DNA of 35,263 nt from Candidatus Woesearchaeota archaeon (GTDB lineage: Archaea; Nanobdellota; Nanobdellia; Pacearchaeales; GW2011-AR1), in the NCBI GenBank assembly GCA_964440825.1, contig CAYYKU010000003.1, positions 1 to 35,263 of the forward strand, given 5' to 3'. A model generated the notes under the pieces. That model was not told the origin of the DNA. It worked only from the letters and a program-made list of their open reading frames with translations, and did no database searches. Numbering within the stretch: position 1 is the stretch's first letter; each line of letters starts with the position of its first letter. Of the stretch, positions 10,285 through 18,247 are shown piece by piece. The position numbers and the translations under genes are program-made.

Positions 10285-11178
10285 CTAGTTAATCATCATT
10301 GCTAAATGATTTAAATCAGCTGCATCTTCTACTATTTTAATGGCGTGTCTTGCAAAATCAAAAGATTCTTGTTTGGATAAAAGCTCTGCATTCTTTCTAA
10401 CTTTTTCTTTTATCTTATATATTTTCTCCATTATTTCAAAATTATTTGTATAGTAAAAATCAAAAGACAATTCTAGTCCTTCCTTTGAAAGAAGAAGTAA
10501 ATCTTTTAATTTTTCAGTTTTTTTAGTTTTTGATCTAACATTTGTTCTCCAAAGACGGTGTATCTCATCTCCTATTTTTTCAAGAGAAAAAGAATAAGTA
10601 AAAAGGGCTCTTCCTTTTATTGGATCCGAATAAGACATTTTATTTATTGCTCTTTCCAAAAACAAACAAAACTTATTTATTTCCCTATCTCTGTTATCTA
10701 GGCTATCTTGGGTTTCGCATTCTTTTCCGAATAGGTCTTCAATTGCAGAATCATAAAACATCAAAACCATCTGAAAAACTCTTTTGAATATTTCATCCAG
10801 ATCTGAATAGTTTCCTCCGCCGATATCTTTGATCACATAAGTATTTTTATTTTGAGAAACAAGAGCATATCCAATAAGCTCTGTCATAGTGTCTATGATT
10901 TTTGAGCTAATATCTTCTTTAGATTTAATTTCAATTTCATCAATTCCTTGAGCATACAATGCATGTACTCTTCTGGCCAATACAATTCTATCTTCATTTT
11001 CAAAAATTATTTGAGCCTTTTTTATAGAAATTTCTTTATTGTTTGTAATAACTAAAGACCTATCTTGTAATGAAACTTCTATCTCTGGATTTTTATCTAT
11101 CGCATTTTGTCTAACCCACTCGATTGGAAGAGTTATGGTATATGCTTGATTTGCCTGCTTTATTACTTTTCTTATCAT
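10285..11178 (-). CDS. archaeal AbrB-PhoU-family (phosphate uptake regulator-like) protein
   Basis: N-terminal AbrB-like RKV...AYTITLPIEWV, ALYAQGIDEIEI, and PhoU-like helices DREINKF and LEKIGD. Confidence 0.82.
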   Translation of the reverse strand: MIRKVIKQANQAYTITLPIEWVRQNAIDKNPEIEVSLQDRSLVITNNKEISIKKAQIIFENEDRIVLARRVHALYAQGIDEIEIKSKEDISSKIIDTMTELIGYALVSQNKNTYVIKDIGGGNYSDLDEIFKRVFQMVLMFYDSAIEDLFGKECETQDSLDNRDREINKFCLFLERAINKMSYSDPIKGRALFTYSFSLEKIGDEIHRLWRTNVRSKTKKTEKLKDLLLLSKEGLELSFDFYYTNNFEIMEKIYKIKEKVRKNAELLSKQESFDFARHAIKIVEDAADLNHLAMMIN

Positions 11179-11258
11179 TTTATATCAATTATATCATTTA
11201 TATAAGAAATATATAAATGTTTCTATGGCGTCAAGATATTGAAAAGGACAAAAATAAA

Positions 11259-12098
11259 ATGGAAAAACACATCGACTTTCATACGCATACATTCTACTCT
11301 GATGGATTGGGAACACCAGAAGATATAATAAAAGCAGCTAGGTTTAATGGAATAGACTACCTAGCTATAACAGATCATGATAATGTAAGGGCCCATAGAA
11401 ATGCTCGTGAACTCGGAAGAAAGTGGAATGTAGAAATAGTTCCGGGAGTTGAAGTAAGTACTGATAAATATCATATACTAGGTCTTGGGATAAATCTGGA
11501 AGCAGAGACACTTAAAGATTTTCTTGCTCTATCTGAAAAAGCACAAAGAAAAGTTTGTGAAGGAAAAATTGCAGGATTGCAAACGCAAGGAATACCTATT
11601 AGTCTTGAAAAAGTTATGAAATATTGCCCCGAGTCTCGTTTAGGAAAAATGAACATTTGGTATGTCATGGCTCAAGATGGAGAATGTAAGGAATTTTTCA
11701 GAAGCAAAGGAATCCCGGTTATAACGTATAACGCCTATAGCAATTATATCGAAAGATCACAGAGTGATGTCAGTGATAAGGATACTGAAATTGCTCCAAG
11801 CGAGGCAATAAGGCAAATACATTTAGCAGGCGGGAAAGCTTTCATAGCTCATCCATTCAAAGAAATAAAAGACATGCATGAATTAGACGTACTTGTTGAG
11901 CAAGGTTTGGATGGAGTTGAAATACAACCAAATCATAATGGAAGAAACGAACCTTTCAGAGAATATGCAAAACAGCGTAATCTTTTAATCACATATGGAT
12001 CTGATTGGCACGGAGGAGTGTTCGATAGAGCTATGTTAACTTGGAGAGGAGAAAACGTTCTTGATTCAAGACTTGCAGAAGCATTAGGGATAAATTAA
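11259..12098 (+). CDS. PHP-domain phosphoesterase (TrpH/YciV-like)
   Basis: DFHTHTFYSDG, AITDHD, PGVEVS, HILG, AHP, GSDWH. Start set at the ATG at 11259. Confidence 0.9.
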   Translation: MEKHIDFHTHTFYSDGLGTPEDIIKAARFNGIDYLAITDHDNVRAHRNARELGRKWNVEIVPGVEVSTDKYHILGLGINLEAETLKDFLALSEKAQRKVCEGKIAGLQTQGIPISLEKVMKYCPESRLGKMNIWYVMAQDGECKEFFRSKGIPVITYNAYSNYIERSQSDVSDKDTEIAPSEAIRQIHLAGGKAFIAHPFKEIKDMHELDVLVEQGLDGVEIQPNHNGRNEPFREYAKQRNLLITYGSDWHGGVFDRAMLTWRGENVLDSRLAEALGIN

Positions 12099-12817
12099 TT
12101 TTTAGCGCTTTTCCAAATCATATCAAAATGTTTTCTGTAGCCGTCAGCAATTTCTTTTTGTTTTACAACTATTGCAAAGGGAGAAAATTTATTCCATAAG
12201 ATTATTGCAATCTTTTCTCCATAAATATTAATAGCCATGGGGGAAGAATATTTTTCAGGTAGATACCTTATTTCTGACAAAGGAATTTTTGGATTTTTTC
12301 CTTCAACATCTTTATTAAAAATAATTTTTGTTTTAATTTTTTCTTTAACTCTTCTTTTATCAAACCAATGAAAATAGAATTCCAAACCTTCATAGGCCAT
12401 TTCAGACGCGCCGATAATTAGAATTTCCTTTTTCTCAGAAAGTTGGTCTTCAAATACAGATTTTAAACCTTCTTTACCTTTGAAAAACAACGTGTCTCCT
12501 CCATGTTTTTCTTTAGCGGAATTAAATAATTCTATCATCTCTGGCAAAATTTCATTTATTCTATTTTCTCTTTCTTCTTCTATTTCTTTAAACCTATTAG
12601 GATTAGCAGCACTAAAAATCTTTTTCCCATTTTCTACCATATATCCGATAAGTCCCTTACCAATTAGTCTTTCTGTAGTATCATAAATAACTCTTCTGTG
12701 AAGTTTTGTTTTTCTAGAGATTGTTCCGGCAGGACGGGGCCCTATTTCTAATAATGTTGAATAAACTAATGCTTCGTTATCTGTAAGTCCTAGTGATTTT
12801 AATTTAATAGTGTCCAT
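12095..12817 (-). CDS. TrmB-family transcriptional regulator
   Basis: LGLTDNEALVYSTLL...HRRVIYDTTERLIGKGLI winged HTH, plus effector domain (IYGEKIAII...FDMIWK). Confidence 0.88.
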   Translation of the reverse strand: MDTIKLKSLGLTDNEALVYSTLLEIGPRPAGTISRKTKLHRRVIYDTTERLIGKGLIGYMVENGKKIFSAANPNRFKEIEEERENRINEILPEMIELFNSAKEKHGGDTLFFKGKEGLKSVFEDQLSEKKEILIIGASEMAYEGLEFYFHWFDKRRVKEKIKTKIIFNKDVEGKNPKIPLSEIRYLPEKYSSPMAINIYGEKIAIILWNKFSPFAIVVKQKEIADGYRKHFDMIWKSAKN

Positions 12818-12848
12818 TATTTATCTAGAGTTATTTTCTTTATATATC

Positions 12849-12874
12849 TTGTGGTGATAAAAGTCACCTCACAA
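12849..12874. promoter_or_regulatory. palindromic operator candidate between divergent TATA boxes
   Basis: TTGT-GGTGA-TAAAAG-TCACC-TC-ACAA, located between the TrmB TATA (minus strand, about 12839-12847) and the ligase TATA-like TTCATATA (about 12876). Confidence 0.55.
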
Positions 12875-12904
12875 ATTCATATAGGTTTCAAAGTTAGTCT
12901 AAAT

Positions 12905-14044
12905 ATGGCAAACAAAAAACAAACACAAAGAATTCAAATTGGTAAACCAATTGAGTCTATGAATCCAATATTCATGAGAGCACCTGATGAAAAAATTTAT
13001 GCTGAGATAATTGCAACACATGGTGGGAGAACACTTGCTGAAATAAAGCAAGATGGTTATAGATTACAAATTCATAAGAAAGACGGAATTGTTAGAGCAT
13101 TTACTAGAAGTCTAAATGAAGTTAATTTAGGGATTTTTCCGGAGTTAAATTCTTCTTTGGCAGGTTTGCCAGATTGCATACTTGATACAGAGGTTACTGG
13201 TTTTGGTTTAATAGGCTATGATGGATTTCAGTCAATAAAAAAGAGATTCAGAAATAAAGTTTCTTCTGAAAGTTTAAAGAAATATTTAGAATCTGGTTTA
13301 ACCTCTGAATTTCCAGTAGGGCTTACTGCATTTGATACTTTATATTGGGAAGATAAAAAATTAATTAATTTACCTCTAATCGAAAGAAGAAAAGTCACCG
13401 AAGGAATTTTAGAAGCAAGAATAAGTCCGAGTGTTCAAAGAAGTTTCACAGAACCAGTAAAGCTAGAAGAATGGTTTGTAGAATTAACAGATAGTAAATA
13501 CGAAGGATTAGTTTGTAAAAATCCAAATTCATTATACTTGCCTGGAAAAGAAACAACTGAATGGTTAAAACTCAAAAGAGCAGAAACTCTTGATTTAGCA
13601 ATACTGGGCGTTTATTTAGATGGAGATTCAATTTCGCAAGTTCTATGCGGAACTTATAATCTAGCAGAAGGAAGATTTGAAACACTTGCAAAAGTTAATG
13701 CAAAAAGAGAAGGAGCAAATAAAACACTAGCTACTATTTTAAATGGAAAACTCTGCGAAGAAAAACCAGAAAATATATTCTTAAATCCAGCAATAGAAAA
13801 AAACTCTGAGCAAATGCCTTCCTATTTTGTAAAACCAGAAAATTCTGCAGTTTTAGAAATTGCATCTATGAACTGTCATTACGGAAATAATACTTGGCAC
13901 TCTTGTGGTTATGATGGCGCAAACGCTTACTCATTAAGAATTGCTTGGCTAAAAAGAATAAGAGAAGACAAGAGTATAACTAACGTATCAACAACTGAAA
14001 AAGTAAGAAAAATGTATTCTACATTCGGAGGACAAAATGAGTGA
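12905..14044 (+). CDS. minimal ATP-dependent DNA ligase (NTase + OB, no N-terminal DNA-binding domain)
   Basis: Motif I EIKQDGYR, III ILDTEV, IIIa AFDTLY, IV YEGLVCK, V WLKLK, VI LR.....RIREDK. Start set at the ATG at 12905. Confidence 0.9.
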   Translation: MANKKQTQRIQIGKPIESMNPIFMRAPDEKIYAEIIATHGGRTLAEIKQDGYRLQIHKKDGIVRAFTRSLNEVNLGIFPELNSSLAGLPDCILDTEVTGFGLIGYDGFQSIKKRFRNKVSSESLKKYLESGLTSEFPVGLTAFDTLYWEDKKLINLPLIERRKVTEGILEARISPSVQRSFTEPVKLEEWFVELTDSKYEGLVCKNPNSLYLPGKETTEWLKLKRAETLDLAILGVYLDGDSISQVLCGTYNLAEGRFETLAKVNAKREGANKTLATILNGKLCEEKPENIFLNPAIEKNSEQMPSYFVKPENSAVLEIASMNCHYGNNTWHSCGYDGANAYSLRIAWLKRIREDKSITNVSTTEKVRKMYSTFGGQNE

Positions 14045-14606
14045 AACTCTAACTGAAGTGCAAATTGAGAAGAATAAAAAAGAAATGCTTGGGCTCATCA
14101 AAGGAATTAAGCGAGAAGGTATAGGCGATTTATGTAACTGGTTAACTGGAAGTGATTTTTTTTATGCTCCCGCAAGTACTAGACATCACGGAAATTTTAA
14201 AGGCGGCCTAGCCGCGCATAGTTATGAAATTTACAAAGAATTTGATAGACAAGTAGATCATTACGGATTAGAAGTTCCAAAAGATTCGAGAGTTTTAGCT
14301 GCGTTTCTACACGATGCTTGCAAAATTGATTTATACGTTGAAAATACTTTGAAAGGCGGAAAGACATCCGAAGCTAAACCTTACAAAATAGAAGAAGCTT
14401 TTCCATTTGGACATGGTGAACGTTCCACGCTTATAGCTCAAAGACACATAAGTCTTACAGATCAAGAAGCGATGCTAATCCGATGGCACATGGGTCCATA
14501 CGATAAGAGTTTTGAAGATTACAAAGAAAAAATAGAAAAAACTCATCCTGAATGTGTTTTATTTCACCATATAGATCATGAAGTTTCTCTTTACATGGGG
14601 CTTTAA
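14037..14606 (+). CDS. HD-domain phosphohydrolase (YhaM-like/phage-type)
   Basis: APASTRHH...GGLAAHS...LHDACK...GHGERS...IRWHMG. Overlaps the ligase stop and has GGAGG upstream. Confidence 0.88.
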   Translation: MSETLTEVQIEKNKKEMLGLIKGIKREGIGDLCNWLTGSDFFYAPASTRHHGNFKGGLAAHSYEIYKEFDRQVDHYGLEVPKDSRVLAAFLHDACKIDLYVENTLKGGKTSEAKPYKIEEAFPFGHGERSTLIAQRHISLTDQEAMLIRWHMGPYDKSFEDYKEKIEKTHPECVLFHHIDHEVSLYMGL

Positions 14607-14635
14607 TGTTAACTAAATTACAATGGAGGAACGAA

Positions 14636-14710
14636 CGATTCGCTTTCGAATAAATAGTTGTCAAAGACAATAAACTGTTTTCAGATAGACTATTTCACGA
14701 ATGCAAATCG
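14636..14710 (+). ncRNA. candidate structured cis-regulatory or small RNA (three-way junction)
   Basis: CGATT/AATCG, GC/GC, TTCG/CGAA and AAATAGT/ACTATTT form a long stem enclosing the hairpins TGTC-AAA-GACA and CTG-TTTT-CAG. It ends 1 nt before GAGGAG. Confidence 0.5.
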
Positions 14711-14720
14711 CGAGGAGAAA

Positions 14721-15191
14721 ATGACAGAACAACTTGAAAGACAACTTATAAGTTTGATCGCAGCAGATAGAATGGATGTTCCAATATCTAGCATGTCTGG
14801 TAAACTTAAAAGAATGAAACCAAAACTAGCAAATGCTATTGACTTACCTGGAGCAGATTACTCTGGAGAAAGAGTTTATGCAAGAGTAGAAGTAGAAGAT
14901 AAGCTTAAGGCAAGAACAATGTCTGAAGCAGTAAGTGATTTTTGTACGGAATATCCAAAATATGGACAAGTTCTTACTCAAATGATTGAGGACAAACGTG
15001 CACAAAAAGAAACACATCTTTACTTCGGAATGAATGCTGGTTGTCGATTAACTGCAGATGATTATCTTGGCGTTATGGCTAATTTAGGATTCACAGAAAC
15101 ACAAGCAAGAAACTTATACGAACCTTTAATCGTGACAAGCAGAACAATCTCAAAGAAGAGAGACGAAGAACGAAGTATACTTATTGCTTAA
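14721..15191 (+). CDS. hypothetical protein (156 aa)
   Basis: ATG at 14721 preceded by GAGGAG (14712-14717) and followed by a terminator hairpin. Confidence 0.8.
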   Translation: MTEQLERQLISLIAADRMDVPISSMSGKLKRMKPKLANAIDLPGADYSGERVYARVEVEDKLKARTMSEAVSDFCTEYPKYGQVLTQMIEDKRAQKETHLYFGMNAGCRLTADDYLGVMANLGFTETQARNLYEPLIVTSRTISKKRDEERSILIA

Positions 15192-15202
15192 AAAAATTAT
15201 TT

Positions 15203-15232
15203 GAGCCGGAAAACCGGCTCTTATTTATTTTA
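15203..15232 (+). terminator. GC-rich hairpin followed by a T-rich tract
   Basis: GAGCCGG-AAAA-CCGGCTC then TTATTTATTTT. Confidence 0.75.
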
Positions 15233-15270
15233 TATAAATCCTTAAATACTCTTTTTTTTGATATTTATTT

Positions 15271-15864
15271 ATGGAACCTGCACAATACTGTATTGGATCA
15301 AAAGAAAATATAGTGAGATTTATCCAAGATGTTTGGCCTTCCAAGGCATATCCCTATGTAAAAGGAGCCTATGATTCTAAATATTTAGGATTTAAACGAG
15401 AACCTTGGGAAGATTTAGCGATAAAAAGTACATTATTTACTATTGCAGCCGTACCTATTACTCGAGAAAAATTTAGGGTAAAAAGAACAAGTGGCAGCCT
15501 AGAAGACTCCGAATTATTCTCTTTCGGAATCCATACTTTAAATGTAAAACCTGGAAACTTTAAAAGATTTGATATGTTTAAGAGAGATGAAATGAAATTA
15601 GGGCACAAGACTATTCCTAACTTCGAAACCTATCCTCTTGAAATTGCTACAGGTCTTTATAGTTATATAGGGAATCTTGAGGACCTTGCAAAAAAAGGCG
15701 TATGTGCTCCAATATCTCCAGATGTATTTAATATTTTTAATGTATTCAATAAGGCAGTAGAAGAGATTCCTAGCGAGCTTGCCCCTTTCTTAGATGAAAA
15801 CTATAAGCGCGCTGCTTTGGATTGTTTAAAAGAGACTTTTAAGTATTCACAAGTTATTTGTTAA
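15271..15864 (+). CDS. hypothetical protein
   Basis: 197-aa ATG ORF with TTAAATA upstream. No motif recognised. Confidence 0.7.
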   Translation: MEPAQYCIGSKENIVRFIQDVWPSKAYPYVKGAYDSKYLGFKREPWEDLAIKSTLFTIAAVPITREKFRVKRTSGSLEDSELFSFGIHTLNVKPGNFKRFDMFKRDEMKLGHKTIPNFETYPLEIATGLYSYIGNLEDLAKKGVCAPISPDVFNIFNVFNKAVEEIPSELAPFLDENYKRAALDCLKETFKYSQVIC

Positions 15865-15866
15865 AT

Positions 15867-15950
15867 TTATTTTTTTAAAACACTCTTTGCGTTTCTAACC
15901 ATTTGTAATTCTTCATTTGTCGGAATTACAAAAACTTTTACTTTTTTAAA
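15867..15950 (-). pseudogene. ackA: acetate kinase C-terminal relic
   Basis: Manual translation FKKVKVFVIPTNEELQMVRNAKSVLKK* contains the acetate-kinase C-terminal VIPTNEEL motif. In-frame stop upstream and no start before the motif. Confidence 0.75.
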
Positions 15951-15988
15951 TCAGTTATATTTTTATACGCTTCTTTCTTTAGTGAAGT

Positions 15989-18247
15989 ATGGAGAAAAAA
16001 ATAGCAGCAAAGAAAACAAAGAAGTTTTATGTAACAACACCAATTTATTATCCTAATGATATTCCCCATATAGGTCATGCATATACAACTGTTGCGGCGG
16101 ATATTCTAGCAAGATGGCATAAATTATTGGGTGAAGACGTGTTCTTCTTAACAGGAACGGATGAACATGGTAAAAAGTTAGAAAAAACAGCACTTGCAAA
16201 AGGCAAGAAGCCGAAAGAATTTATAGACGCATTAATTCCCGAGTTCAAATCTGCATGGAAGAAGCTAAATGTAGAATATGATTATTTTATACGAACAACA
16301 GACAAAGCACACGAAAAAGTTATACAAGAAGTTTTGCAAAAATGTTTTGATAATAGAGATATTTATCTTGGAAGTTACAAAGGACTTTATTGTGTTGGTT
16401 GTGAAGCATATTATACTGAAAAAGATTTAGAAGAGGGTTGCTGTCCTATACACAAAAAGCCAGTAGAAAATCTAAACGAAGCAAGTTATTTTTTTAAGTT
16501 ATCTAAATACAAAGATAAATTACTAAAACTCTATAAAGACAATCCAAATTTTATATTGCCAAAAGAAAGAGCAAATCAGATAATCAACTCAGTAAAAGAA
16601 GGGCTTCAAGATTTAAGTATCTCTAGAACAAGTTTTGATTGGGGAATACCTTTACCTTTTGATAAAAAACATGTTTGCTTCGTCTGGTTTGATGCATTAT
16701 TCAATTATTACTCCGCAACAAGAGAAAAGGGCAAAAGTAAATATTGGCCAGCAGAAGTTCATCTAGTAGGAAAGGACATAGTCTGGTTTCATACGGTTTA
16801 CTGGCCAGCTTTCTTAATGTCTGTAGGGCTAGATTTGCCAAAGAGTGTTTTTGCTCATGGATGGTGGACATTTGATAAAGAGAAAATATCAAAATCAGTT
16901 GGGAAAGTTATAAACGTAGATGAACTAATCTCAATTGCGGGAGTAGATTCCGCTAGGTATTTTTTATTTAGAAATACTGCTTTCGGACAAGACGGAGATT
17001 TTTCTGAAAAGGCACTAATTGAAAGACATAATACTGAATTGGCAAACAAATTGGGAAATTTGGTCTCAAGAGTTTCTGCTTTAGTGGAAAAATATGGTTT
17101 AACTAAAACAGAAAATAAACTTTTGAATAAATTAAATCTTAAGAAAATAGAAACTCATTTTGAAAACTATGAAATTGATAAAGCATTGAATGAAATCTTC
17201 TCTTTCATAGACAAAACAAACGAATACGTTCAAGAAACTGAACCTTGGAAAACAGGAGATAAAAAGGCCCTTTATGAATTAGCAGATTCAATAAAAGCAA
17301 TTACGATTTTACTCTCTCCCTTTATGCCTGGAACCTGCGAAAAGATTTCAAAAGTTTTTAATTTTAAGATAGACTATAAAGAAATTTCTAAACCTCTTAA
17401 AGTTTCAAAGATTAAGAAAGCAGATATCCTCTTTACAAAAATAGAAGTAGAAGAAAAACCTATAGAACAAAACAAATCTTCAGTAAATAATTATAAAAGT
17501 TATTTGATGGGTGCTGAAAGAATTTTAGATAAAGAATTAGAAAAATTAGATATTAAAATAAAAAAGAAGGGCGAAGATAGGCTTCTCTTAATTCCAGATA
17601 ATAAACTTAAAGAATACCTATCATTAGTTGAAAACAAATTAGATAATGGATTTTGGAACGAAGTGGTTGGAGAAAGGATATTATTTGTTTTTAAGCTAAA
17701 AAATGGCAAAGTTAAAAGAATAGAATTCGGTAAATCTAGTCAAAGTGAAATCACAAAGCTTTGCTCAGAATTTGCAAATGAAAAACCAGAGAATACAGCA
17801 GATATATTAGGGTATTTATCAAAGAATCCTTTTTATTCAGATTATATTTTGAATTATAAAAACAATCAAAAAGTTATTAAACAAGAAATATCTGGAATAA
17901 TTACAATGGCAGACATGATTAAATACGATGATTTCGCAAAATTAGATTTAAGAGTTGGAACTATAAAAAACGTTGAAGATTTAGAGGGTGCAGACAAACT
18001 TTGGAAGTTAACGGTTGATTTAGGAACAGAAATTGGTCAAAGAACAATTTTGGCAGGAATAAAGAAATACTACTCTAAAGAAGAACTTACAGAAAAACAA
18101 ATTATTGTTATTGTAAACTTAGAACCGAGAAAAATGAAAGGCTCTGAATCTCAAGGAATGTTATTGGCAGCAGGAACTGCAGGATCCGATACTTGTATCT
18201 TAGTTTCTCCAGAGAAGAAAGTTGAAAATGGAACTAAGATAGGATAA
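15989..18247 (+). CDS. metG: methionine--tRNA ligase with an extra inserted domain and C-terminal tRNA-binding OB domain
   Basis: YVTTPIYY, HIGH, GTDEHG, CVGC...CPIH knuckle, VWFDAL, KISKS; C-terminal DLRVG...NLEPRKMKGSESQGMLL. Confidence 0.97.
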   Translation: MEKKIAAKKTKKFYVTTPIYYPNDIPHIGHAYTTVAADILARWHKLLGEDVFFLTGTDEHGKKLEKTALAKGKKPKEFIDALIPEFKSAWKKLNVEYDYFIRTTDKAHEKVIQEVLQKCFDNRDIYLGSYKGLYCVGCEAYYTEKDLEEGCCPIHKKPVENLNEASYFFKLSKYKDKLLKLYKDNPNFILPKERANQIINSVKEGLQDLSISRTSFDWGIPLPFDKKHVCFVWFDALFNYYSATREKGKSKYWPAEVHLVGKDIVWFHTVYWPAFLMSVGLDLPKSVFAHGWWTFDKEKISKSVGKVINVDELISIAGVDSARYFLFRNTAFGQDGDFSEKALIERHNTELANKLGNLVSRVSALVEKYGLTKTENKLLNKLNLKKIETHFENYEIDKALNEIFSFIDKTNEYVQETEPWKTGDKKALYELADSIKAITILLSPFMPGTCEKISKVFNFKIDYKEISKPLKVSKIKKADILFTKIEVEEKPIEQNKSSVNNYKSYLMGAERILDKELEKLDIKIKKKGEDRLLLIPDNKLKEYLSLVENKLDNGFWNEVVGERILFVFKLKNGKVKRIEFGKSSQSEITKLCSEFANEKPENTADILGYLSKNPFYSDYILNYKNNQKVIKQEISGIITMADMIKYDDFAKLDLRVGTIKNVEDLEGADKLWKLTVDLGTEIGQRTILAGIKKYYSKEELTEKQIIVIVNLEPRKMKGSESQGMLLAAGTAGSDTCILVSPEKKVENGTKIG

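Follow-up and report, generated by a model that had tools for sequence, protein, structure and literature searches.

A regulated two-domain DNA ligase coupled to a YhaM-like HD-domain protein in small-genome archaea: a candidate module for trimming and sealing DNA ends

A stretch of 35,263 nucleotides from a Candidatus Woesearchaeota archaeon (assembly GCA_964440825.1, contig CAYYKU010000003.1, here contig C3; the whole stretch is referred to as the window) encodes a short ATP-dependent DNA ligase whose gene overlaps that of a YhaM-like HD-domain protein, and both genes lie behind a TrmB-type regulator gene and a palindromic putative operator. The tight coupling of ligase and HD protein behind this regulator and palindrome, proposed in an initial annotation of the window, is conserved across loci. 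We judge it somewhat more probable than otherwise that these genes form a module under repressor control whose products trim the 3′ ends of DNA and then seal the break. The parts belong to known families; their combination, the operator and the restriction to small-genome archaea are new. The assembly from which the window derives comprises 817,525 bases in 86 contigs and is 79.9% complete, with a GC content of about 32%.

The regulator gene (240 aa; 12095–12817, minus strand; PF01978, E = 2.8e-12) is separated by 87 nt from the ligase gene (379 aa; 12905–14044, plus strand), which overlaps the HD gene (189 aa; 14037–14606, plus strand; assigned from fold and profile matches) by 8 nt (ATGAGTGA), with a GGAGG motif just 5′ of the overlap within the ligase gene. 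After a spacer of 114 nt follows the last gene of the unit, an open reading frame (ORF) for a 156-aa protein (14721–15191, plus strand). Coordinates and profile matches agree that the anatomy given in the initial annotation (a TrmB gene pointing away across a palindrome from the ligase gene, the overlapping HD gene and the 156-aa ORF) is real. Contigs of runs X1–X3 match the locus without differences, a comparison that speaks to contiguity only; the TrmB–ligase junction and the junctions from the HD gene through the spacer to the 156-aa gene are spanned in the contigs of a second sample, and the third run is concordant.

The ligase matches PF01068 (4.5e-30, above the cut-off) and TIGR00574 (6.8e-39) and consists of nucleotidyltransferase and OB domains, with only about 45 residues preceding motif I. 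The OB-domain profile PF04679 matches the window ligase weakly (1.4e-4, below the cut-off) and is a precomputed match for many ligases of its family; the N-terminal DNA-binding domain (PF04675) has no match in the window ligase or anywhere in the assembly. Alignments to Protein Data Bank (PDB) structures begin at about residue 215–245 of three-domain archaeal ligases, with 4eq5 as the best match (6.5e-24) and 2hiv aligned over residues 7–372. Structures of the LigD/LigC type score more weakly (5.8e-7 and about 1e-6), and the model of non-homologous end joining (NHEJ) ligases, TIGR02779, matches at 6.8e-28, which is below its cut-off. Alignment of 24 family members shows motifs I, III, IIIa, IV, V, and VI to be conserved, with nearly all of their residues invariant, including K48, D50, G51, R53, E96, F143, D144, E200, G201, K205, K222, and K224 as well as the motif VI residues R345, R353, D355, and K356. 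The PF01068 match, this alignment and the range of the PDB matches agree with the earlier description of a 379-aa ligase that has every motif and lacks the N-terminal domain. The same description had singled out motif III, which reads DTE rather than DGE; D94 of this motif is kept in at least 90% of the 24 sequences and its middle residue varies across the family (T/S/A/C), so the reading is not distinctive. With its nucleotidyltransferase and OB set intact, the enzyme appears, to judge by these motifs, to be competent.

The short ligases form a family of about 115 cluster representatives (350–397 aa, 34–91% identical), whose named members are labelled Nanoarchaeota, Pacearchaeota or uncultured archaeon; full-length ligases enter the family search only at an E-value of about 1e-26, a sharp separation. 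Some members have a precomputed PF09414 (RNA_ligase) match beside PF01068. In a quick maximum-likelihood tree of 54 ligases, the family is a single clade (35 rows; SH-aLRT 100), distinct from the full-length ligases and from a second kind of short ligase (7 rows), and the ligases linked to an HD gene group together (2 label changes, against a mean of 17.7 after shuffling). Because ligase similarity does not follow taxonomy (the ligase of G400, a genome of the same family as the window genome, is 38% identical to that of the window, and ligases from other families are 46–48% identical), lateral movement of the gene is suggested. The second kind of short ligase occurs in G013, G030, G031, G034, G036, and G039 (L191–L197), is 307–340 aa long and 24–31% identical to the window ligase, and has a clade of its own; TrmB, HD gene and operator were not found with it at these loci. 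A viral origin of the window ligase was also considered and rejected, the ligases at 68 IMG/VR loci being only distant ones (24–34% identity across the adenylation domain).

The short ligase is an accessory enzyme, because a ligase with the N-terminal domain is found in 36 of the 41 genomes of a relatives' panel (the window genome, G000, and 40 relatives), including six of the seven other genomes of the genus, because both forms, full-length and short, coexist in three of these genomes (G001, G002, and G006), and because the place of the full-length form in the window genome falls in a gap of the assembly. In G001 and G002 the full-length ligase gene adjoins a gene for a protein of about 790 aa, whose counterpart in the window assembly is 93–95% identical and is cut at the end of contig C29 (9218 of 9219), and the genes on the far side of the full-length ligase match the small contigs C86 and C63; this synteny with contig ends makes an assembly gap the best explanation for the missing gene. 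The separate full-length ligase that was to be confirmed elsewhere in the genome was thus not recovered from the assembly itself, and relatives holding both forms, together with synteny, indicate where it would lie. That the short ligase is instead the organism's only, and thus its replicative, ligase would agree with the lack of any other PF01068, PF04675 or NAD-dependent ligase match in the window assembly and with G003, which likewise shows the short form only. Set against this are the 79.9% completeness of the assembly, the presence of both forms in the nearest relatives G001 and G002, the contig break at the full-length region, and the 3 of 41 genomes in which no ligase at all was found, which indicates that misses through incompleteness are common; we regard a sole ligase as extremely improbable.

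The HD protein of the window has no Pfam match at E ≤ 0.01 (PF01966 reaches 0.093), and 8 of 13 HD family members match PF01966. Among viral protein families it matches phrog_5889 (2.5e-28) and phrog_28876, "metal-dependent phosphohydrolase" (1.4e-25), and across 13 aligned relatives H51, H61, H92-D93, K96, H126, H151, and D180 are invariant. When the family profile was compared with the PDB, YhaM was the sole significant match (9.5e-4). The AlphaFold2 model of the protein (pLDDT 91.5) leads to the same structure, both with Foldseek (YhaM 9h3f, E = 5.4e-4, TMq 0.63; all others above 0.2) and with VIA-align (Z 16.5, rmsd 3.0 over 166 residues; next match 9.1). The alignment spans residues 103–282 of YhaM, which is its HD domain only, at 18–19% identity, superposes the HD dyads of the two proteins, and leaves the OB domain of YhaM without a counterpart. 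By profile and by predicted structure, the protein really is YhaM-like, as had been supposed; the resemblance to MOBH relaxases that had been named beside it is not significant, TraI_2 (PF07514) being matched weakly by 1 of 13 family members (E = 0.13). YhaM is described (PMC12107432) as a Mn-dependent 3′–5′ exonuclease acting on single-stranded DNA (ssDNA) and single-stranded RNA (ssRNA), for which the HD dyad is needed; it forms hexamers, needs its N-terminal OB domain for ssDNA binding, and transformation with ssDNA depends on it. Phage homologues of the HD gene adjoin a gene for single-stranded DNA-binding protein (SSB) in 39 of 74 viral loci (L104–L177), and Sak/RecT/Bet annealing proteins, exonucleases, ERCC4, SbcCD-like proteins, DnaB and primase are encoded near viral HD genes; judged by these gene contents, the phage neighborhood of the family is one of ssDNA metabolism. 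A phage HD gene standing alone beside an SSB gene looks like a split form of the OB plus HD architecture of YhaM. Prediction of a complex between ligase and HD protein returned 0.00 in two runs, an uninformative score.

The linkage of the two genes was followed in 80 genome loci obtained with the HD profile from a one-genome-per-species search and in 74 viral loci from IMG/VR, with a ligase hidden Markov model built for this analysis serving to find ligases beside HD genes. A ligase of 347–397 aa lies directly 5′ of the HD gene and on the same strand in 27 of the 80 genome loci, one of which (L050) has a 77-aa ORF call between the two. Archaeal titles are carried by 27 of the 80 HD loci and by 26 of the 27 pair loci, and the closest loci that have a name bear the titles Woesearchaeota or Nanoarchaeota; no ligase was found beside the HD gene in the other 52 bacterial-labelled loci or in the 74 viral loci. 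The 27th pair locus (L035) is titled Acidobacteriota and contains TrmB, operator, ligase, HD gene and, downstream, a methionyl-tRNA synthetase (MetRS) gene; its gene order mirrors that of the archaeal loci, so that the locus probably reflects misbinning of an archaeal contig and not a bacterial occurrence of the module. Within 401 genomes drawn evenly from the class, the window genome included, the HD gene occurs in 5 and a family ligase (E ≤ 1e-35) in 9, and in the relatives' panel the HD gene occurs in 4 of 41 genomes. The three other class genomes whose ligases are at least 46% identical to that of the window (G188, G313, and G353) all have TrmB, operator, ligase and HD gene (3 of 3), two of them being identical to loci already counted. 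The ligase–HD pair is therefore rare and patchy and is tightly linked inside one subclade. Of the three genes whose co-occurrence the initial annotation had proposed to examine, ligase and HD gene are paired in these loci, and the 156-aa gene does not track them.

The TrmB regulator has an N-terminal winged helix, and PDB entry 3qph matches its residues 6–140 only (2.3e-6); its C-terminal domain has no Pfam match at E ≤ 0.01, the sugar-binding PF11495 included, and in the Atlas yields unnamed clusters and weak leads (Regulator_TrmB, PLDc_2) at 0.78–0.80. The region between regulator and ligase reads TTTATATA-TCTT-GTGGTGATAAAAGTCACCTC, that is, a TATA-like box (TTTATATA, 12839–12846), 22 nt from the TrmB start codon, stands 4 nt before the palindrome GTGGTGA-N6-TCACCTC (12851–12870). 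Box and spacing are identical in G002, G003, G004, and G006, and the box may serve as a promoter element. The whole 817,525-base assembly contains a single copy of the palindrome core GGTGA-N6-TCACC, against an expectation of 0.18. The wider loci were inspected with 5-kb flanks; a regular expression for the operator, written after sites had been seen, finds the motif in 23 of the 27 pair loci within the interval from −260 to +60 relative to the called start of the ligase ORF, and it has three matches elsewhere in the 217,681 nt scanned, two of which precede extra ORFs ahead of the ligase (L024 and L046). In 13 of the 27 loci the ligase has a related TrmB gene as its immediate divergent neighbor, and in five more (L024, L027, L029, L034, and L046) such a gene lies elsewhere in the flanks; the operator is there even in loci that show no TrmB gene in the fetched flanks. 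A site between TATA box and start is the usual place for archaeal repression, and the GTGA/TCAC half-sites recall the TrmBL1 site. The regulator is predicted to bind this palindrome and to act there as a repressor.

We propose that binding of the TrmB regulator to GTGGTGA-N6-TCACCTC would switch the rightward unit off, since this site is placed after the TATA box and ahead of the point where transcription is expected to start. Induction by some signal would then yield the two-domain ligase and, through translational coupling, the HD enzyme. The latter would act as a metal-dependent nuclease or phosphoesterase on 3′ ends, trimming or unblocking tails that are single-stranded and termini that are mispaired or blocked so as to leave a 3′-OH, after which the ligase would seal the nick. 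The gene arrangement, its conservation, the accessory standing of the ligase and the fold of the HD protein are observed; repression by TrmB, the substrate of the HD enzyme and the sequence of reactions belong to the proposal. Of the inducible end-healing and sealing module first described, the regulated ligase–HD core is conserved and is retained here, and the RNA, the PHP-domain gene and the 156-aa gene drop out as parts. The absence of Ku and LigD from that description holds as well: neither Ku (PF02735) nor PF13298 was found in the 79.9%-complete assembly or in gene-cluster maps of 27 related loci. The suggestion of anti-nuclease defense finds no echo, as the TrmB, ligase, HD, and 156-aa proteins have no PADLOC match at E ≤ 0.01.

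Several points weigh against a module for the trimming and sealing of DNA ends. It is known from sequences and predicted structures. G400 has TrmB, operator, a 38%-identical ligase and the 156-aa gene and no HD gene, and distant family ligases (32–34% identical) stand alone in G140, G348, and G230; the ligase can therefore do without its HD partner. A full-length ligase was found neither in the window assembly nor in G003, which leaves a narrow margin for replacement of the main ligase by the short one. The operator count is not independent, given how the regular expression was written, and in 9 of the 27 pair loci there is no TrmB gene within the fetched 5-kb flanks. As to substrate, YhaM also degrades RNA, and the HD protein does not have the YhaM OB domain; HD enzymes, moreover, span many chemistries, and likeness of fold does not fix the reaction.

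The same chemistry might serve DNA acquisition by a host-dependent archaeon, with the module processing incoming or recombining ssDNA, the HD enzyme trimming 3′ tails in the way of YhaM in natural transformation and the ligase sealing recombination joints. Such a role would fit the requirement for YhaM in ssDNA transformation (PMC12107432), the recombination modules in which phage HD homologues lie (SSB adjacent in 39 of 74, annealing proteins near), and the patchy spread of the HD gene (5 of 401) together with a ligase tree that does not follow taxonomy. However, uptake, SSB and annealing genes were not found beside the archaeal module in the 27 loci, and the reaction is the one assumed for end repair, so that sequence cannot separate ssDNA processing from repair; we consider the ssDNA reading fairly unlikely. 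RNA could also be the substrate, the HD protein healing 2′,3′-cyclic-phosphate or 3′-phosphate ends or trimming RNA 3′ ends and the ligase sealing RNA. YhaM acts on ssRNA too (PMC12107432), HD domains are named as end-healing phosphoesterases of PNKP-like proteins (PMC1997131), and the PF09414 match on some family ligases points the same way; the window ligase, however, has an OB domain with motif VI and finds its best matches among replicative DNA ligases (TIGR00574, 6.8e-39; 4eq5, 6.5e-24), and no 5′-kinase, which RNA breaks with 5′-OH ends would need, is encoded in the 27 loci, which makes RNA repair unlikely. Quite unlikely, in our view, is a metabolic or proofreading link to the ligase in which the HD protein is a phosphohydrolase of nucleotides or small molecules (dNTP, signal nucleotide or 5′-adenylate). 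The HD superfamily contains many such enzymes, some of which turn up as weaker fold matches (Z 6–9), and the OB domain that confers affinity for nucleic acids on YhaM (PMC12107432) is absent; but YhaM stands far above other HD structures (Z 16.5 versus 9.1; Foldseek 5.4e-4 versus above 0.2), and the phage setting of the family is ssDNA metabolism.

The initial annotation had reached further and combined ligase, HD protein, a structured RNA, the 156-aa protein as an end-binder and a PHP-type exonuclease in one obligate repair or defense unit. All five do occur together in the window, and a family ligase with the 156-aa gene behind it, again under the same palindromic operator, is seen in three lineages (the G000/G002/G006 group, L031, and G400). 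However, the spacer element is absent from G002 and G006 and dispersed elsewhere, and the PHP gene is adjacent within the genus only; these distributions already contradict the five-part unit for the RNA and the PHP gene. The four core proteins lack PADLOC matches, and 12 of 41 genomes have the 156-aa gene, mostly without ligase or HD gene, against 4 of 41 for the HD gene, so that a single obligate unit appears very improbable. Because it is more widespread than the HD gene and mostly stands alone behind the same regulator and operator, the 156-aa protein is co-regulated cargo of TrmB and its operator and not the specific partner of ligase and HD protein that it had been taken for. Its gene is directly divergent from a TrmB gene of this subfamily, with neither ligase nor HD gene, in G004, G007, G023, G026, G030, and G032, and in G018 one 152-aa ORF call lies between the two; in G037 there is no TrmB gene beside it, and in G029 the contig ends there. 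The strict operator pattern precedes it in the ligase-less loci L018, L020, L022, and L023, variants read by eye precede it in L017 and L021, and no match was found before it in G026 (L208). Four forms of cargo are thus seen: the 156-aa gene alone, ligase–HD, ligase–HD–156-aa, and ligase–156-aa. Tentatively, and with a low probability in our estimate, TrmB and palindrome could constitute a conserved regulated slot of these small-genome archaea whose cargo is swapped between lineages, a so far unrecognized inducible DNA-end regulon in which ligase and HD protein would be a split, non-homologous counterpart of the ligase and 3′-phosphoesterase of LigD and the 156-aa family a new factor of DNA metabolism. 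If so, the ligase–HD pair could also handle host-derived or environmental ssDNA, in the manner of YhaM in bacterial transformation.

For the preferred reading, a module that trims 3′ ends and seals the break, the nearest functional parallel would be LigD/Ku NHEJ, which likewise may be said to join an accessory ATP-dependent ligase without the DNA-binding domain of Lig1-type enzymes to Mn-type cleaning of 3′ ends. In the window, the end-processing part has the HD fold rather than the LigD phosphoesterase fold and is encoded by a separate gene rather than fused to the ligase, no polymerase domain is present (though none was searched for on its own), and the ligase sequence matches archaeal replicative ligases (6.5e-24) better than LigD/LigC structures (5.8e-7). 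By analogy, the module may be functionally comparable to the ligase and 3′-phosphoesterase of LigD, with unrelated parts and no Ku. Chlorella virus ligase and the bacterial LigC and LigE also consist of nucleotidyltransferase and OB domains without the N-terminal DNA-binding domain. What sets the family described here (350–397 aa) apart from these minimal ligases is its own clade, next to the full-length archaeal ligases of the same order, and its link with regulator, operator and HD gene. YhaM of Bacillus and Staphylococcus shares the HD fold and metal-binding residues with the archaeal protein and differs from it in its N-terminal OB domain and its hexamers; the archaeal protein has no OB domain. 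The regulator resembles TrmB/TrmBL1 of Thermococcales in its PF01978 winged helix, in a palindromic GTGA/TCAC site and in the position of this site after the TATA box, but no sugar-binding C-terminal domain was detected in it, and its targets are genes of DNA metabolism rather than of sugars.

A further precedent is DRB0098–DRB0100 of Deinococcus radiodurans, described as an irradiation-inducible, putative repair operon of an HD-kinase PNKP, a macro-domain protein and an ATP-dependent ligase-like protein (PMC1997131). As in the window, a ligase homologue without a DNA-binding motif is combined with an HD candidate for end healing; in Deinococcus the HD domain is fused to polynucleotide kinase, a macro-domain gene is present, and DNA ligation by DRB0100 could not be shown (PMC1997131). 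The window module has a stand-alone YhaM-like HD protein, neither kinase nor macro domain, and a TrmB-type regulator. A full-text search of the literature on DNA ligases of DPANN archaea and Woesearchaeota found no description of the module, and a search on ATP-dependent ligases with HD proteins or end healing brought up no more than the precedents from Deinococcus and LigD.

DNA repair in archaea with very small genomes is regarded as minimal. A conserved second ligase, separately regulated and coupled with a YhaM-like nuclease, would be a compact route for processing and sealing ends, from parts not previously seen together, and the analysis also gains a predicted operator for an uncharacterized TrmB subfamily, a YhaM-type HD domain that stands alone and is likewise common in phage recombination modules, a two-domain ligase family of possible use to enzymologists, and, for the family of the 156-aa protein with its hundreds of members, an initial regulatory setting.

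The 156-aa protein, called an orphan in the initial annotation, belongs to a large archaeal family, for which a search at E ≤ 0.001 gave 630 homologues. An exhaustive profile search yielded 138 representatives (50% identity), nearly all of them stand-alone proteins of about 155–170 aa or fragments, and the few longer members show no informative Pfam fusion. Pfam, NCBIfam, PHROG, PADLOC and the PDB contain no match to it, a profile search of the PDB giving nothing below an E-value of 0.6; matches in the Atlas score at most 0.81 and name no family. The end binding once suggested for it is indicated by nothing in these results, the predicted pI being 6.6, the structure model poor (pLDDT 62.4, pTM 0.30) and fold and family matches absent. 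Genes of this family often adjoin that of MetRS, as in the window (14721–18247) and at L020, L208, and L209, and TrmB, the 156-aa gene and MetRS may represent an older arrangement.

The structured RNA of the initial annotation corresponds to a copy of a dispersed inverted-repeat element (14636–14710, plus strand) inside the spacer between the HD and 156-aa genes. The folding energy of the spacer (−21.3 kcal/mol) is only slightly better than that of shuffled sequences (z −2.0, with 6 of 200 shuffles folding as well), and an Rfam search at E ≤ 1 over 12000–15400 found nothing in the spacer and one chance match at 12828–12891. The element has the arms CGATTCGC and GCAAATCG around a variable interior of 35–57 nt, and only the outer stem is conserved. 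Its pattern has seven exact matches in 4 of 41 genomes, all of the genus, and none in the reversed control; other copies (L184, L185, L187–L190, and L018) lie in unrelated intergenic places, two of them 70–200 nt from tRNA genes. In the closest relatives, G002 and G006, the gap between HD and 156-aa genes is 29 and 33 nt, respectively, and the element is absent from the operon. The spacer element is incidental and not part of the module; in its own right, it is a candidate MITE-like element or small RNA.

The PHP-domain gene (11217–12098, plus strand; assigned by family profile matches) converges on the TrmB gene with an overlap of 4 nt (12095–12098), as the initial annotation had it. Its best NCBIfam matches, nucleoside-bisphosphate phosphatase and RNase RNM, are both below their cut-offs, so that the earlier label of YciV-like protein is apt at the level of the family (YciV/TrpH-like) and falls short of the curated cut-offs. 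The gene occurs in 8 of 41 genomes and is near TrmB only in the five ligase-bearing genomes of the genus; in G004 some 35 kb separate it from the TrmB and 156-aa genes, and it was not found in the wider pair loci. With linkage confined to the genus, it is not a part of the module. The first 14 codons of the ORF (11217–11258) are probably over-called: relatives have a stop codon in the matching stretch, and their PHP ORFs are 282–291 aa long.

Downstream of the 156-aa gene, a terminator-like hairpin on the plus strand (GAGCCGG-AAAA-CCGGCTC, 15203–15220; seven pairs, six of them G-C) is followed by a T-rich tail to 15230. The strong terminator reported there is present as a hairpin with its tail; its strength as evidence is another matter, since the region contains three sites of this type against a shuffle mean of 2.0, which makes a single site weak evidence. 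Beyond it lie an ORF of 197 aa (15271–15864, plus strand), which has no family match and of which G002 has two tandem paralogues (46% and 92% identical; L014, 6823–8088), and the MetRS gene (from 15989). On the other side of the module, a 297-aa protein (10285–11178, minus strand) has weak AbrB/MazE-like (5.7e-4) and PhoU (3.8e-3) matches, and its gene adjoins the PHP gene in the window genome and in G001, G002, G003, and G006.

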